DNA of 18,743 nt from a virus, in UHGV virus genome UHGV-0092215. One strand, written 5' to 3'. The first letter of the stretch is position 1; every line of letters begins with the position of its first letter. The notes under the pieces are model-generated. The model searched no databases, was not told the origin of the DNA, and worked only from the letters and a program-made list of their open reading frames with translations. Below are positions 50 to 5,179 of the stretch, one piece after another. Both the position numbers and the translations under genes were made by a program.

Positions 50-664
50 CTATCGACGGCACTGCTGCCAGATAACACCACCGGGGAAACATTCCATCAT
101 GATGGCCGTGCGGACATAGGAAGCCAGTTCATCCATCGCTTTCTTGTCTGCTGCCACTTGCTTTGCGACATCCAGCGCCGCACATTCAGCAGCGTTTTTC
201 AGCACATTTTCGATTAACGCTTCGAGATTGGTATCGACACCAGAATTAACTTCAAATTTGTCGGCGCTGGTGGTTACCTTGTTCTGCACCGGTTCATCAC
301 TGCGAACACCAAAGCTGATGTTGTAGATATTGGTCACCGGCTGAGGTGTATCGATTGCCGCTGCGTGGATAGCACCATTTGCGATAGCGGCGTCCTTGAT
401 GAATGACACTCCATTGCGAATAAGTTCGAAGGAATTGACCAGGTGTTCAACGGCAAATTTCTGCCCTTCTGATGTCAGAAAGGTAAAGTGATTTTCTTTC
501 TGGTATTCAGTTGCTGTATGTCTGGTTTCAGCAAAACCCAGCTCGCGTAATTCAGCGGCACCAGATTTAGACGGCAGGTCACCTGACAGCAACGCGCCAC
601 GGAAAAAGAGCGCATACAGCACGTCAGTAGCAGCGCCAGATAGCGTAATAATTTTCTCAGCCAT
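50..664 (-). CDS. hypothetical phage protein (204 aa), first large gene after the lysis cassette
   Basis: ORF-track 204 aa ORF; ATG at 662-664 preceded by AAGGA about 7 nt upstream; no motif I can assign to a family. Confidence 0.5.
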   Translation of the reverse strand: MAEKIITLSGAATDVLYALFFRGALLSGDLPSKSGAAELRELGFAETRHTATEYQKENHFTFLTSEGQKFAVEHLVNSFELIRNGVSFIKDAAIANGAIHAAAIDTPQPVTNIYNISFGVRSDEPVQNKVTTSADKFEVNSGVDTNLEALIENVLKNAAECAALDVAKQVAADKKAMDELASYVRTAIMMECFPGGVIWQQCRR

Positions 665-678
665 TATTCGATCCTTTT

Positions 679-852
679 TTAAGCGCGGCCTAACTGTTTG
701 AAGGTAGAAGGACGACCAGTGCGTAAGACATGTTTATCATCACCGAGCACACCGATAACAATGCGCGTTCGTCCCTTTTTATCGCTGATGATCATCCCGT
801 CATTACGAATAAACATCCTCAATCCTGACTTTGATTTTTTGCCGAATTGCAT
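679..852 (-). CDS. small basic hypothetical protein (57 aa, MQFGKKSKSGLRMF...)
   Basis: Below the 60 aa ORF-track cutoff, translated by hand. ATG at 850-852 with AAAGGG 7 nt upstream; stop TAA 679-681 sits directly before the RBS of the next gene. Confidence 0.4.
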   Translation of the reverse strand: MQFGKKSKSGLRMFIRNDGMIISDKKGRTRIVIGVLGDDKHVLRTGRPSTFKQLGRA

Positions 853-870
853 AGCTATACCCTTTTAGAC

Positions 871-924
871 GTGAGCCTGTCGCACGGCAAAGCCGCCGAA
901 AGTTAACGGTTTGCCCAGGCTCAC
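871..924. repeat. long imperfect inverted repeat (9 bp perfect outer arms GTGAGCCTG / CAGGCTCAC plus inner GGCAAAGCCG / CGGTTTGCC stem)
   Basis: Read directly from the sequence; lies in the intergenic gap between the spanin genes and the small ORF at 679..852. Confidence 0.45.
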
Positions 925-961
925 AACTGAAAGACTTTCTTTGATGTGCGCGTGCGATGCG

Positions 962-990
962 CATTAAAAAGCCCCGCTATTGCGAGGCCA
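962..990 (-). terminator. putative intrinsic terminator at the 3' end of the spanin pair
   Basis: On the minus strand GCCTCGC-AATA-GCGGGGC (7 bp stem with one G-U pair) followed by TTTTT; the stop codon of the lipoprotein gene lies in the hairpin. Confidence 0.5.
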
Positions 991-1210
991 TGGTGATTTT
1001 ATTGGGACAGTTACGCTGAACGGACCTGTTATGAGTCAACACATCTTTCTTAGTCTGGCGGTCCATAACCTCAATGTCGTGCTCAGTGAGGTAGATTATG
1101 CTTACCCAGTCACAGGCCGTGTCCGTTACTTCAGGTTTTGCGGGTAAACTTTTCGCGCAACTCACGGTCAACATCGTCATCAGGAAGATGATTAACAGTC
1201 TGTTGTACAT
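977..1210 (-). CDS. putative o-spanin (Rz1-like outer-membrane lipoprotein)
   Basis: 77 aa ORF with hydrophobic N-terminus and lipobox-like LTVSC; AAGGAG RBS 6 nt upstream of the ATG at 1208-1210; overlaps the upstream gene by 80 nt in another frame, as Rz/Rz1 pairs do; directly after the endolysin. Confidence 0.6.
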   Translation of the reverse strand: MYNRLLIIFLMTMLTVSCAKSLPAKPEVTDTACDWVSIIYLTEHDIEVMDRQTKKDVLTHNRSVQRNCPNKITMASQ

Positions 1211-1400
1211 CCCTGGCTCCTTTTGTTGTTTCTACCCGGCGTTCTGCAACAGCTTCAGTAGCAGTTGCACGTTCTTCAGTTCGTTGCTGGTCCGCTTTTG
1301 TTTCAGCAATACTGGCACCACGTGATTTGCCCAGACCAAAAGCACCGGCAATTGCTGCCAGCGCAGCAACAATCAGGCCGATAATCATTTCAAGTCCCAT
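1131..1400 (-). CDS. putative i-spanin-like membrane protein (Rz-like, 89 aa)
   Basis: Internal ATG at 1398-1400 (MGLEMIIGLIVAALAAIAGAFGLG..., one N-terminal transmembrane segment then a charged tail) with GAGG RBS; the ORF-track start at 1535 would overlap the endolysin. Shorter than a typical Rz, so the call is positional. Confidence 0.5.
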   Translation of the reverse strand: MGLEMIIGLIVAALAAIAGAFGLGKSRGASIAETKADQQRTEERATATEAVAERRVETTKGARDVQQTVNHLPDDDVDRELREKFTRKT

Positions 1401-1407
1401 AGTAACC

Positions 1408-2034
1408 TCACACCAGTGCGGCTTTAGCTTTGGCGTAACGTTCACGGCGGTCTTTAATGCCGTTCTGCCCGCCGTTAATAATCTGTGTGACACGCTCCAA
1501 ATCGCCCGGATACCGTAGACAACCGTTTGAAACATAGAACCAGGCAGCGCTGCGTGCAGCGTTAATGTCTTTTCCCAGCAGTTCAGGGTTGCTGACTAAA
1601 TCCAGTTTTAACGCCGTACCACAGGTCAGGTAGTTATCCAGGAAGGTGATCCCTATAATTCCGCGCCCCCGGTATTTCCACCCATCACCAGCCGACTTGT
1701 TGCCAAAGCGGCCTCCGTATACCAGATTTGCAATCGCCCGCTGGCGTTCGAGTGGCAGAACTTTTTCGTAATTTTTTCTTCCCAGCGCACTGGCCTGGTC
1801 TGGAGTAAGCCGCTTTACTTTCACAAAATAGGCTAATCCGTCGATGCTATAGTTGAAGCTTTCCACCAGTTGGGTAAAGCCAGTGCTTTCGTGCCCACAT
1901 TGCGCAATAAACATGGCCTGATCGAGTTTTGTCGTAATGCCGAATTCTTTCATTGCCGCATCAATGTGCGGAAACCAGCGTGCAGAAAGCCCGGCGCTGA
2001 TACCAGCCGCCTGCTGAAATTGTGATTGGTTCAT
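1408..2034 (-). CDS. phage endolysin, glycoside hydrolase family 19 (chitinase-like lysozyme)
   Basis: Internal ATG at 2032-2034 overlaps the upstream stop (TAATG); sequence from MNQSQFQQAAG... carries GH19-type motifs (AQCGHESTGF, NLVYGGRFGN, GRGIIGITFLDNY); sits between holin-like genes and spanins. Confidence 0.85.
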   Translation of the reverse strand: MNQSQFQQAAGISAGLSARWFPHIDAAMKEFGITTKLDQAMFIAQCGHESTGFTQLVESFNYSIDGLAYFVKVKRLTPDQASALGRKNYEKVLPLERQRAIANLVYGGRFGNKSAGDGWKYRGRGIIGITFLDNYLTCGTALKLDLVSNPELLGKDINAARSAAWFYVSNGCLRYPGDLERVTQIINGGQNGIKDRRERYAKAKAALV

Positions 2035-2315
2035 TATTGCCTCAGATGATCTACCAGACGTGCCACGTTGCCTCTGACGGCGACCAGCACGGACAGAAAG
2101 ATAATGTTGGCCCCGATAGTGGCCCATGATGAGTACGGGTATATACCGCACAGATACGCCAGCGGAACTGCGCTGTAGATGACCGTAAGCAGCCACGCCA
2201 GGCGAGATATCCACGGTCGATGTCGGGAATCACCACGACGGTAAAACATCAAGGTCAGCACTACCCCAGCGCAAAGCAATGCATTTAAAGTTGCCGATGG
2301 GTCATTTTGTACCAC
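2034..2315 (-). CDS. holin-associated small membrane protein (second holin or antiholin-like, 93 aa)
   Basis: GTG start at 2313-2315 preceded by GGGGAGG RBS; about 3 predicted transmembrane segments; between holin and endolysin. Confidence 0.6.
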   Translation of the reverse strand: MVQNDPSATLNALLCAGVVLTLMFYRRGDSRHRPWISRLAWLLTVIYSAVPLAYLCGIYPYSSWATIGANIIFLSVLVAVRGNVARLVDHLRQ

Positions 2316-2688
2316 CTGAACCTCCCCGGCGCGTTATCAGCGCCACCAGCGAGCCAACATCCTGATTATTCAGGAACGTCAGGATTTTGACGGCTAAAGC
2401 AGAAACGATTACGGCGCCAATGGCATCCAGTGGTTTATCACTGTAGCCGGTAGCCTGAGCCAGCTTTGAACCCACCAGCCCGGAACAAAGGATCCCCGCG
2501 ATATACGACACCAGAAAATATGCCAGTCGGCGCGCTGCACTTAGATCCGCTGCAGTTGCAATGTAAAAAACAGCCCCGGCAAATGCGCCAAACACCACAC
2601 CGTAATCGGTTCCGGACAGAAATCCATAGACGCTGGCCCCCGTCAGGACACCACCAGCCAGCCCAGTACCGGAAATCGGATCGGACAT
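2302..2688 (-). CDS. putative holin (128 aa multi-pass membrane protein)
   Basis: ATG at 2686-2688 with AGAGGGGG RBS; Gly/Ala-rich hydrophobic segments and charged C-terminus; first gene of the lysis cassette. Confidence 0.7.
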   Translation of the reverse strand: MSDPISGTGLAGGVLTGASVYGFLSGTDYGVVFGAFAGAVFYIATAADLSAARRLAYFLVSYIAGILCSGLVGSKLAQATGYSDKPLDAIGAVIVSALAVKILTFLNNQDVGSLVALITRRGGSGGTK

Positions 2689-2833
2689 TTAGCCCCCTCT
2701 TAATTGCTGTGATTCCTCTCAGAAATGAGGGGATGTGGAATCAGGCAACCGGGCTCTTTTGTTCAAATAAAAGTAAGGATGATTCCCGGTGCCTGAAAAT
2801 GGTAATCACCACATCCACAGGGCGTGATGATCG

Positions 2834-3886
2834 TTATGTTTTGCTCAGTTTTTCCACCTCTTCGGTGGTCTGAATAAATCTGTCAGCTTCCAGTTCTACT
2901 CCGATCGCCCGACGGCCAAGTTCTATTGCAGCTTTCACAGTTGAACCAGAGCCCATAAAGAAATCGGCAACGATATCCCCCGGCCTGCTGCTGGCGCTAA
3001 TGATCTGCTTCAGCATGTCGGCGGGTTTTTCACATGGATGTTTGCCTGGATAAAACTGAACAGGCTTATGCGTCCATACGTCGGTATACGGAACAAGAGC
3101 GGAAACAGAGAAGCAGCGCCGAAGGATTTTGTATTCCTCCAGCAATTCTGAATACTTGCGGTTTAATGACTGGTAGGTAGCCACCAGCTGGTGGTGAGGA
3201 TGTTCAAGCTTTTGCTGAATATGTTTATCGATGGCGATCCGCGTGAACAGTTCCTGCAATTTTCGATAGTCCACTTCATTCGGTAGTTGCCATTGGCTTG
3301 CACCAAACCAGTGTGACGCCATGTTTTTCTTTCCGGTTGCCTCAGCTATTTCTTTCGAGCTGACACCCAGCGATTCACGGGCATTACGGAAGTAGTCAAT
3401 CAGTGGCGTCATAATGTGCTGCTTTAGCTCTGTGCTTTTCCTTTCGTAAACATCCTCTTTACCTGTGTACGGCCCAAGATAGTGCTCAGCAAACAAAATC
3501 CGTTCCGTAGATGGAAAGTACGCACGCAGGCTTTCTTTGTTACAACCATTCCAGCGGCCCGATGGTTTTGCCCAAATTATGTGATTCAAAACGTTGAACC
3601 GGGCACGCATCATAATCTCTATGTCTGAGGCCAGTCGGTGACCGCAAAACAGGTAAATGCTGCCAGCAGGTTTAAGTACGCGAGCATACTCAGCCAGGCA
3701 GCTATCAAGCCAGCGTAAGTAGTCCTCGTCCCCCTTCCATTGGTTGTCCCAGCCGTTAGGCTTCACTTTGAAGTACGGAGGATCCGTAACAATCAGATCA
3801 ATAGAGTTATCCGGGAGGGTGGCGACGTAATGCAGGCTATCAGCGTTGATTAACTCAACACTGTTTATTTTTACAGTATTTTTCAT
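2834..3886 (-). CDS. DNA methyltransferase, beta-class (DPPY motif before FxGxG; N6-adenine or N4-cytosine)
   Basis: 350 aa; LIVTDPPYF near the N-terminus and FFMGSGST near the C-terminus; no restriction-endonuclease-like partner visible; no obvious RBS before the ATG at 3884-3886. Confidence 0.85.
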   Translation of the reverse strand: MKNTVKINSVELINADSLHYVATLPDNSIDLIVTDPPYFKVKPNGWDNQWKGDEDYLRWLDSCLAEYARVLKPAGSIYLFCGHRLASDIEIMMRARFNVLNHIIWAKPSGRWNGCNKESLRAYFPSTERILFAEHYLGPYTGKEDVYERKSTELKQHIMTPLIDYFRNARESLGVSSKEIAEATGKKNMASHWFGASQWQLPNEVDYRKLQELFTRIAIDKHIQQKLEHPHHQLVATYQSLNRKYSELLEEYKILRRCFSVSALVPYTDVWTHKPVQFYPGKHPCEKPADMLKQIISASSRPGDIVADFFMGSGSTVKAAIELGRRAIGVELEADRFIQTTEEVEKLSKT

Positions 3887-4036
3887 AGATCAGTAAGCGT
3901 AACTCTGATAGGCTCACGTTGCTTTTGCGCTAAAGCAGTGGGCCTTGGTTAGCTTGTGACCTGAAAGCATGAGCTGATGGCTGGCCGGGTGCGCTAACAC
4001 CCACCAGCCGCCCATTTCCACAGCAGAAAGCCCCCA

Positions 4037-4228
4037 TTACTGGAGGCGTTTATAACATCCAAACTGGTAATCAGATAAACCCGCCATCACCAGCTGCGTA
4101 AGTATGAGCTGGCAACGTTCGCGGCTGAGGTGGGTATTCTGTGCAATCTCCCCAGCCGTTGCTGGTTTATCGCTTAATTCATTGAAAACAGCCTTTGCCG
4201 TTTCTGTCATATCTTCCTGATTTAGCAT
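4037..4228 (-). CDS. small winged-helix-like hypothetical protein (63 aa)
   Basis: ORF-track ORF; composition resembles the small protein at 14247..14501 (..AGEIA..L..L...G..); weak RBS. Confidence 0.45.
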   Translation of the reverse strand: MLNQEDMTETAKAVFNELSDKPATAGEIAQNTHLSRERCQLILTQLVMAGLSDYQFGCYKRLQ

Positions 4229-4348
4229 GTCTTTTACCTAAAATTAGTTGCGTGACATACAGATAACTCTGGTTGGTGATACCAGCAAGAGAAGAATTCC
4301 ATTCTGCGACCGCCAGCGCCTTTATGCGCCGTGCATGGCTGATTTGCC

Positions 4349-4376
4349 ATAAAAAAACCCGCTCATCGGCGGGTTT
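4349..4376 (-). terminator. strong intrinsic terminator downstream of the Q-like gene (tR'-like)
   Basis: On the minus strand AAACCCGC-CGATGA-GCGGGTTT followed by TTTTTAT; lies about 90-120 nt after the Q-like stop. Confidence 0.7.
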
Positions 4377-4389
4377 ATAAAACTTTGGC

Positions 4390-4440
4390 AACATATCAAA
4401 TATGCTTTAAATATGGCTTATTTTGTTGCATTTTGCAAGC
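4390..4440 (-). promoter_or_regulatory. candidate late promoter (PR'-like) with qut-like region
   Basis: Minus-strand TTGCAA (4433-4438) then about 17 bp then CATATT/TATTTA; assigned mainly by position between the Q-like gene and the terminator; element match is weak. Confidence 0.3.
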
Positions 4441-4468
4441 GTGTTTGAAGGAGATAGTGAAATTTACT

Positions 4469-5158
4469 TCACATTTCTGCCACTTTGAGGGCTTCTTCTT
4501 CCTCATAGTATTCCAGAGCCATGGCCAATGCAGATTCATCAAGCTGCGTAAAAGCGGTCTTTAACCCAGCCCAGTGCCCTGAATAGACACGCAACCATGT
4601 CGAACGGTCAACGCTAACCATGCGGGCCAACGCTGCACCAGCATAGTCTTTATAGGTTTCATTATTTCTGGTTGCGGCAATTTCCTGCCCTGCCAGCCAT
4701 ACCAGGCCAATCAGTTTCTTTACTACGCGATCCTGAAGGGAATTATCACCCAGGCATTTCTGATAAGTTTTCCAGACGTATTCACACATCATCACCTGGT
4801 GCTTATAGCTAAGGTCAAAACCGTAGCAGTACCGCAACCAGGCCTGCTGGTATCCACTAAGCGCGGACACTGCCCTACGCCACGGCGCGGACTCAAATTC
4901 CGCATCTTTTATCGGCGGCATTGGCCTGCGGCGGCTGCGTGTTTCCAGTACATACAGTGGCGCGGAAAGCGAGTTAACAAAGCGTGGCCCCTTCTCTCCT
5001 TCGAGTTCGACGAGATGAATTCCACGGCGCGGGGTGGCATTTTTGTCTGCTGGTGGGTGTTCACTGAAAGCCTCAAGCTGCCCTTTTGTTCCCCCGGAGA
5101 GGTCAGGTAGCGCGCGGCGCAATTCTATTCTTACAAAATTCAGGTCTTGTTGATTCAT
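4469..5158 (-). CDS. putative late-gene antiterminator (Q-like, QuuQ/phage-82 type)
   Basis: 229 aa from the ATG at 5156-5158 (the ORF-track GTG at 5179 directly follows the upstream TAA and is the alternative start); followed by promoter-like sequence, strong terminator and lysis genes; a DUF968-like gene sits upstream as in E. coli Qin ydfU-quuQ. Family is from position and recall. Confidence 0.5.
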   Translation of the reverse strand: MNQQDLNFVRIELRRALPDLSGGTKGQLEAFSEHPPADKNATPRRGIHLVELEGEKGPRFVNSLSAPLYVLETRSRRRPMPPIKDAEFESAPWRRAVSALSGYQQAWLRYCYGFDLSYKHQVMMCEYVWKTYQKCLGDNSLQDRVVKKLIGLVWLAGQEIAATRNNETYKDYAGAALARMVSVDRSTWLRVYSGHWAGLKTAFTQLDESALAMALEYYEEEEALKVAEM

Positions 5159-5179
5159 GCTTCTTTGCGCTCCATACAC

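Follow-up and report, generated by a model that had tools for sequence, protein, structure and literature searches.

The lysis cassette of a lambdoid prophage, virus genome UHGV-0092215, ends in two overlapping genes that very probably code for a two-component spanin, the functional unit that follows holin and endolysin. The window, by which we mean the whole analysed stretch of 18,743 nucleotides (nt), is a lambdoid prophage, and both open reading frames (ORFs) lie on its minus strand. The candidate inner-membrane subunit (i-spanin), encoded at 1131-1400 (ATG to TGA), is a protein of 89 amino acids (aa) that reads MGLEMIIGLIVAALAAIAGAFGLGKSRG... and then continues into a charged tail. The candidate outer-membrane subunit (o-spanin), encoded at 977-1210 (ATG to TAG), is a 77-aa prolipoprotein, MYNRLLIIFLMTMLTVSCAKS..., with a mature form of 60 aa. 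The first-pass annotation of this DNA gave the coordinates and description of both genes correctly; it had paired them by position, as an unusually short i-spanin and an o-spanin overlapping it in Rz/Rz1 fashion.

Family membership and inheritance of the gene pair

The pairing is now borne out by evidence beyond position: matches to PHROG 1026 and PHROG 1275, homologues in SpaninDB, co-inheritance in near and distant relatives, and a signal peptidase II (SPase II) signal in the second protein. The 89-aa protein matches PHROG 1026, 'Rz-like spanin', with E=8.6e-33 over residues 1-88 of 89 (profile length, 85), and more weakly five further Rz-like spanin PHROGs. The 77-aa protein matches PHROG 1275, also 'Rz-like spanin', with E=2.7e-30 over residues 1-75 of 77. 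The first-pass annotation had proposed a check against curated spanin sets, and its result is positive, as the homologues in phages mEp390 and HK639 are SpaninDB entries. HK639 gp70/gp71 and mEp390 gp051/gp052 are overlapped i-/o-spanins of 91 and 75 aa with an 86-nt overlap (Kongari 2018, PMC6139136), and the corresponding SpaninDB families are '(HK639, mEP390)' for the i-spanins and 'BcepNazgul' for the o-spanins (PMC6139136). SpaninDB places a protein in a family when its identity to the members (to every member, for i-spanins) is 40% or more over 40% or more of the periplasmic domain (i-spanin) or of the mature sequence (o-spanin). The 89-aa protein is 73.6% identical to the mEp390 i-spanin (residues 1-87) and 72.1% identical to that of HK639 (residues 27-87), which places it in the i-spanin family. 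The lipoprotein is 61% and 63% identical to the o-spanins of mEp390 and HK639, respectively, and belongs with these two members of the 'BcepNazgul' family, in which BcepNazgul, KL1 and AF are more distant. The pair, from a Citrobacter-type prophage, is an ordinary addition to an already catalogued spanin family.

The likeness to HK639 and mEp390 extends to gene organisation. In all three the genes overlap in the +1 frame (by 86 nt there, by 80 nt here), and they share their Shine-Dalgarno sequences, an MG(L/F)E N-terminus, the absence of cysteine from the i-spanin and the presence of two cysteines in the o-spanin. The i-spanin here ends in ...EKFTRKT (89 aa) as against ...WKRPGGG (91 aa) in HK639 and mEp390; the dual coding of this region means that the mature o-spanin also begins differently. 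The C-terminal tail of the o-spanin is also unlike that of HK639 and mEp390, and the host lineage here is Citrobacter-like.

The dual-coding overlap (1131..1210, minus strand) spans 80 nt, in which the C-terminus of the i-spanin is read in frame 0 and the signal peptide of the o-spanin in frame +1; the second gene begins 190 nt past the start of the first and is therefore in the +1 frame. A Shine-Dalgarno sequence GAGGT (1405..1409, minus strand) lies 4 nt 5' of the i-spanin ATG and overlaps the TGA of the endolysin gene (1408-1410), and SpaninDB records the identical GAGGT for HK639 and mEp390 (PMC6139136). The o-spanin gene has its own Shine-Dalgarno sequence, AGGAG (1217..1221, minus strand), 6 nt 5' of its ATG and within the i-spanin gene, which is kept as aaaGGAG or aaGAGG across related loci.

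We compared the pair with 86 related loci, comprising the cultured phage Fostie, one E. coli chromosome, four genomes (Citrobacter, Kluyvera, Leclercia and Raoultella) and 80 IMG/VR contigs. A single-protein scan of genome contigs gave only 4 loci, and an alignment-based scan of IMG/VR supplied more. All 86 retain both ORFs directly after the endolysin gene, namely a gene for an 89-92-aa transmembrane protein and an overlapping lipoprotein ORF that shares 80, 86 or 89 nt with it, always in the +1 frame. The out-of-frame overlap noted in the first-pass annotation is thus a constant feature (86/86 loci). The architecture is the 'overlapped' one of P2 LysB/LysC and not the fully embedded one of lambda Rz/Rz1.

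Nucleotide diversity by codon position was computed on 52 distinct DNA sequences. In the region belonging to the i-spanin alone, diversity at codon positions 1/2/3 of the first-gene frame is 0.072/0.058/0.273; in the region belonging to the o-spanin alone it is 0.125/0.113/0.330 in the second-gene frame; and in the overlap it is 0.034/0.048/0.166 in the first-gene frame. Each frame shows its own third-position peak, which is damped in the overlap (0.166 vs 0.273 outside), and we therefore conclude that each frame is under separate purifying selection and that the overlap is doubly constrained. The pair consists of real genes, not chance ORFs. A longer version of the first gene (a 134-aa ORF, 1131-1535) was considered and rejected, as it would run inside the endolysin gene, only the ATG at 1400 lies near a Shine-Dalgarno sequence, and the relatives start at the matching MGxE.

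As a long-range check, six distant representatives (<50% identity) were looked up, of which four gave enough DNA; of the other two, one had no retrievable DNA and one lies on a contig (L089) that ends before the partner gene. All four carry an overlapping lipoprotein with the shared core DTxCxW...PIY...QIL.HN....C, one of these pairs having a 13-nt overlap in the +2 frame. The endolysin belongs to glycoside hydrolase family 108 (GH108) in both distant loci for which a family is on record (L087 and L089). We conclude that the module moves as a pair and does so behind endolysins of different families. Such co-travelling is spanin-like behaviour, and two unrelated functions would be hard to reconcile with it.

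The lipoprotein and the DNA that follows it

The 77-aa protein has a predicted SPase II signal, MYNRLLIIFLMTMLTVS followed by Cys, that includes Arg4 and a hydrophobic core (pattern rule). The lipobox L-T-V-S-C occupies residues 14-18 (1157..1171, minus strand), with Cys18 predicted to be lipidated and Ala at position +2, and fits a PS51257-type pattern together with Arg4. Of 78 loci, 76 conform to the lipobox pattern, each with its Cys at position 18. At +2 the 78 relatives have A, V, G or S and none has Asp, consistent with delivery to the outer membrane by the Lol system. All 78 o-spanins have two more cysteines, C33 and C68. AlphaFold2, run on a 24-sequence alignment, predicts a compact helical domain at residues 31-68 with a predicted local distance difference test (pLDDT) score of 83-95; the domain is probably disulphide-bonded. 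Among the nearest folds to the model in BFVD are proteins annotated as O-spanins in phages Mangalitsa and Myduc. Foldseek found nothing similar to it in the PDB, and a PDB sequence search with profiles of both proteins returned nothing below E=0.1. The o-spanin shares the core DTxCxW...IYLT..D...QTK.D.L.HN....C with the 'BcepNazgul' family of SpaninDB. The C-terminal half of the lipoprotein is hydrophilic (Kyte-Doolittle -0.8 to -1.8) and there is no second hydrophobic segment. A unimolecular spanin of the T1 gp11 type, which combines a lipoprotein signal with a C-terminal transmembrane domain (TMD), was therefore rejected.

A tblastn search finds the lipoprotein in 172 phage records, whose hosts belong to at least 10 genera, including Pseudomonas (62 records), Klebsiella (27), Yersinia (19) and Xanthomonas (14), as well as Burkholderia. 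This distribution bears on whether the lipoprotein might instead serve lysogenic conversion or exclusion, in the manner of Bor, Cor or Sie, with its overlap with the lysis cassette being incidental. Lambdoid phages often bear lipoprotein morons beside their lysis genes, the DNA downstream is mosaic and resembles a moron boundary (see below), and the homologues in NCBI are all named 'hypothetical protein' or 'Lipoprotein'. However, in every case examined among these records the lipoprotein follows a small transmembrane protein after an endolysin. Its start and Shine-Dalgarno sequence lie within the upstream gene, and a simple scan found no sigma-70-like promoter in 600-4600; we therefore conclude that the lipoprotein is expressed in the late lysis transcript. 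There was also no match to the defence-system models of PADLOC. Taken with these points, a conversion or exclusion lipoprotein seems most improbable.

In public annotations the lipoprotein starts at an internal Met and is 65 aa long (MMLIVSC... or MLTVSC...; L001 1648-1845, L002 1514-1711). Pharokka chose this start in phage Fostie and PGAP chose it in E. coli; it leaves 5-6 residues before the lipobox Cys, so that the signal peptide is lost. Many NCBI entries of 59-68 aa are truncated likewise, and the i-spanin homologues are all named 'hypothetical protein'. The upstream ATG (MYSRLL...), which is preceded by an AAGGAG or AAGAGG Shine-Dalgarno sequence, is a plausible start of the lipoprotein.

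The o-spanin stop codon is overlapped by a hairpin resembling an intrinsic terminator (965..989, minus strand), with an 8-bp stem, the loop AATA and a following TTTTT (RNA fold, -21 kcal/mol; z = -2.9). Together with the final 13 nt of the o-spanin ORF, this hairpin is part of a non-coding stretch of ~125 nt (861-989), to which intergenic DNA without annotation in the lambdoid phages mEp237, mEp213, mEp043 and Fostie shows 93-96% identity. Its counterpart in HK639 sits after the major tail protein gene and contains an annotated terminator. The stretch resembles a mobile terminator or moron-boundary module, and it probably explains why the C-terminal tail of the o-spanin is variable (67-82 aa) immediately beyond the last conserved Cys.

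The short i-spanin candidate and its topology

The first-pass annotation had called the i-spanin atypically short. At 89 aa it is indeed below the validated i-spanins, which range from 128 to 153 aa (lambda Rz, 153; P22 gp15, 145; P2 LysB, 141; Mu gp23, 128), but within its own family this length is ordinary. Searching 1.84 billion representative proteins with a profile returned 158 relatives at E<=0.001 and, fragments and mis-called ORFs aside, almost all are 83-108 aa long. Homologues occur in 1119 protein-database clusters, nearly all of the 120 listed being 89 or 91 aa long, and tblastn found the protein in 40 phage records. Other short i-spanins in SpaninDB are those of Jenny_12G5 (80 aa), AF (82 aa), and iEPS5 and FSL_SP-088 (84 aa each) (PMC6139136). 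Shortness is a trait of this i-spanin family and is unusual only against the lambda-type Rz.

The 89-aa protein consists of a single, clear N-terminal TMD (rule-based check) and a charged, mostly helical C-terminal part of ~65 residues without cysteine; 76 of 78 relatives likewise have no cysteine. The TMD (residues 5-24; 1329..1388, minus strand) coincides with an AlphaFold2 helix at residues 3-22, and its Kyte-Doolittle maximum of 2.56 is near that of lambda Rz (2.81). It contains a small-xxx-small ladder with i+4 spacing, formed by A12, A16, A20 and G24 and continued just past the helix by G28 and A32, which is conserved at 55-86% among divergent family members (<50% identity). AlphaFold2 places two further helices at residues 30-69 and 74-88, with low confidence (pLDDT 56.6), and SpaninDB gives ~72% helix for the mEp390 and HK639 i-spanins (PMC6139136).

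The most conserved part of the i-spanin is its extreme C-terminus, which carries the motif D-R-E-L-R-x-x-(F/W)-x-R at residues 78-87 (1140..1169, minus strand). In 84 divergent representatives L81 is conserved at 98%, R82 at 78%, W/F85 at 69% and R87 at 87%. The i-spanin of Burkholderia phage KL1, whose partner comes from the same o-spanin family, shares the ending ...ELRDEWTRPE (SpaninDB, PMC6139136). This motif is the presumed contact site for the o-spanin.

Topology was judged by charge rules. The N-terminus preceding the TMD, M-G-L-E, has no Lys or Arg and contains an acidic residue, Glu4, which all 20 aligned relatives share. N-terminal Lys or Arg is absent from 79 and present in 38 of 117 divergent representatives, and 65 of the 117 have an acidic residue in this N-terminal segment. 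On the other side of the TMD, K25-S-R27 follows directly and there are three Lys/Arg within 15 residues. An inverted topology, with the N-terminus outside and the C-terminus in the cytoplasm (N-out/C-in), had at first been inferred from the excess of Lys/Arg in the C-terminal over the N-terminal flank in 114 of the 117 representatives. As a strong inference it was rejected, since a matching basic C-flank, with 3-4 Lys/Arg among the first 15 residues past the TMD, is found in four validated i-spanins (lambda Rz, P22 gp15, P2 LysB and Mu gp23). Therefore, only the missing N-terminal charge is unusual. In a close relative, L003 (Citrobacter sp. Cu233), Lys replaces Glu4 (MGLKMIIG...), and this natural variant would favour an N-in orientation. 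As homologues normally share their topology, the i-spanin family is compatible with an N-in/C-out topology.

These features can also be read as those of an inner-membrane lysis accessory with an external N-terminus and a cytoplasmic C-terminus, for instance an antiholin or a holin helper, in which case the lipoprotein would act alone or with a different partner. Such a protein would account for the 79 of 117 representatives without Lys/Arg ahead of the TMD, the invariant Glu4 of close relatives, the basic cluster directly after the TMD and the doubt that a SpaninDB curator expressed about topology (PMC6139136). The TMD is itself conserved as a ladder, whereas the TMD of Rz has been described as a mere anchor, and there is a precedent for a small transmembrane protein with a lysis role other than that of a spanin in Lcc6 (65 aa) of the Shewanella phage LambdaSo. 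However, the basic cluster does not discriminate, being equal in the four validated i-spanins; N-terminal positive charge is present in 38 of the 117 representatives and in L003; and it is the extreme C-terminus that is most conserved. An overlap that is co-inherited with one lipoprotein family over several host genera would be poorly explained by two proteins acting in separate compartments. Moreover, the cassette already has two holin-family genes and would otherwise have no spanin, as we saw no spanin candidate adjoining the lysis cassette besides this pair. We consider an accessory function of the 89-aa protein quite improbable, and a two-component spanin remains our preferred reading.

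Several points nevertheless weigh against this assignment. The SpaninDB assignment of the mEp390 and HK639 pairs is itself bioinformatic, and our literature searches found no experimental test of any member of the i- or o-spanin family. Neither protein has a Pfam match above threshold in a scan at E<=1, in which the 89-aa protein matched only DUF6779 (below the cut-off) and a TMD-type family and the lipoprotein matched nothing; the families of lambda Rz and Rz1 (Phage_lysis and Rz1) were not matched. NCBIfam has no family for either protein, and a match to GspM (E=0.01) was dismissed, together with DUF6779, as noise from a TMD followed by a charged helix. As already mentioned, AlphaFold2 models the i-spanin with low confidence. 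Counting 0.15 nm per helical and at most 0.35 nm per extended residue, we estimated from the predicted helices and linkers that the two periplasmic parts stretch to ~18 nm, which is no more than the width usually given for the E. coli periplasm. This reach puzzle applies to all 'mini' spanins in SpaninDB. The 89-aa protein lacks the N-terminal Lys/Arg of the validated i-spanins and has the conserved Glu4 in its place, a feature also remarked on by the SpaninDB curators, who recorded doubt about the topology (PMC6139136). For the HK639 and mEp390 homologues, SpaninDB gives no predicted coiled coil (PMC6139136).

The lysis cassette, comparison with known spanins and proposed mechanism

The pair ends a cassette whose gene order is Q antiterminator, DNA methylase, two holin-family genes, GH19 endolysin and the spanin candidates. 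The first gene of the lysis cassette (2302..2688, minus strand) encodes a 128-aa protein of the holin family (Pfam Phage_holin_8, E=9.7e-34; PHROG 198 'holin', E=2.4e-41). The second (2034..2315, minus strand) encodes a 93-aa protein of a different holin family (Pfam Phage_holin_3_7, E=1.1e-19; PHROG 217 'holin', E=1.5e-31); it overlaps the first by 14 nt, and its end abuts the ATG of the endolysin gene. Either gene of this tandem pair (2034-2688, minus strand) may encode the holin, and one of the two may encode an antiholin. The endolysin (1408..2034, minus strand) is a 208-aa protein of the glycoside hydrolase family 19 (GH19) type (PHROG 181 'endolysin', E=1.9e-83; Pfam Glyco_hydro_19, E=9.8e-9), and its homologues are annotated as GH19 protein or endolysin.

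Elsewhere in the window, PHROG matches identify a CI-like repressor, a CII-like protein, an O-like replication protein, RusA and an anti-repressor, as well as the Q-like antiterminator (4469-5179) and the DNA methyltransferase (2834-3886, minus strand; 350 aa). The methyltransferase gene is an insertion ahead of the lysis cassette. Between it and the antiterminator gene lies a terminator-like hairpin (4355-4376, minus strand; 8-bp stem followed by TTTTT), which may be a Q-dependent late terminator. Downstream of the cassette, a 204-aa protein of no assigned function (50-664, minus strand) matches PHROG 17079 (E=2e-124) and has no Pfam, NCBIfam or PADLOC family; a 57-aa ORF (679-852, minus strand) has no significant match, its best PHROG and Pfam E-values being 0.03-0.08. 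Both ORFs sit behind the element resembling a moron boundary. Scanning the window for Rfam families and tRNAs gave no hits. Citrobacter supplies most of the closest protein relatives, ahead of Salmonella and E. coli, and a related cassette is present in ~345 of 5426 complete E. coli genomes.

Among the experimentally tested spanins, P2 LysB/LysC resemble the pair in being overlapped in the +1 frame at the end of a lysis cassette. We detected no sequence similarity to them and they share no PHROG family with the pair; LysB has 141 aa and periplasmic cysteines, as opposed to 89 aa and no cysteine here. T4 PseT.3/PseT.2, which have been tested by complementation of lambda Rz/Rz1, also combine a cysteine-free i-spanin with an o-spanin containing two periplasmic cysteines (essential in T4), but their genes are separated and their sequences are unrelated. 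Lambda Rz/Rz1 share with the pair their functional class and their position in the late operon behind Q, holin and endolysin. However, Rz1 is fully embedded in Rz, whereas the genes here only overlap; Rz has 153 aa, two coiled coils and intermolecular disulphides, in contrast to the 89-aa protein, for whose homologues no coiled coil is predicted; and Rz1 is proline-rich and unstructured, whereas the o-spanin here is predicted to have a folded helical domain.

By analogy with lambda Rz/Rz1, P2 LysB/LysC and T4 PseT.3/PseT.2, the pair would act at the end of the following sequence. The holin or holins would permeabilise the inner membrane and the GH19 endolysin would degrade the peptidoglycan. 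From its anchor in the inner membrane the i-spanin would extend its C-terminus into the periplasm, where the conserved ELRxxWxR motif at that end would bind the lipoprotein tethered to the outer membrane. The complex would then pull both membranes together and fuse them, lifting the last barrier to phage release. The small-xxx-small ladder of the TMD may provide non-covalent dimerisation in place of the disulphides of Rz-type i-spanins.

A different mode of action, in which this 'mini-spanin' family does not form a ready-made Rz-style bridge across the periplasm, appears unlikely to us. It is suggested by an i-spanin of 83-108 aa without cysteine, the transmembrane ladder, the acidic or uncharged N-terminus and the lack of a predicted coiled coil in the SpaninDB homologues, together with an o-spanin whose helical domain is folded and probably disulphide-bonded. 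If it were true, either the topology of the i-spanin would be unusual or dynamic, or the pair would be too short for an intact periplasm. In the latter case the two proteins would engage only after loss of the wall, as the membranes approach each other, and fusion would be driven partly by the conserved transmembrane helix.

As a discovery the pair carries little weight, as it completes an ordinary cassette and its family is already in SpaninDB and the PHROGs. Its i-spanins are short and cysteine-free and have an odd N-terminal charge, and their topology has been marked as doubtful by the curators. Hundreds of these proteins are named 'hypothetical' by the NCBI pipeline, and the starts chosen by PGAP and Pharokka strip the signal peptide from the lipoprotein. 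Given these names and internal-Met starts, the family is systematically under-annotated in Enterobacteriaceae prophages.

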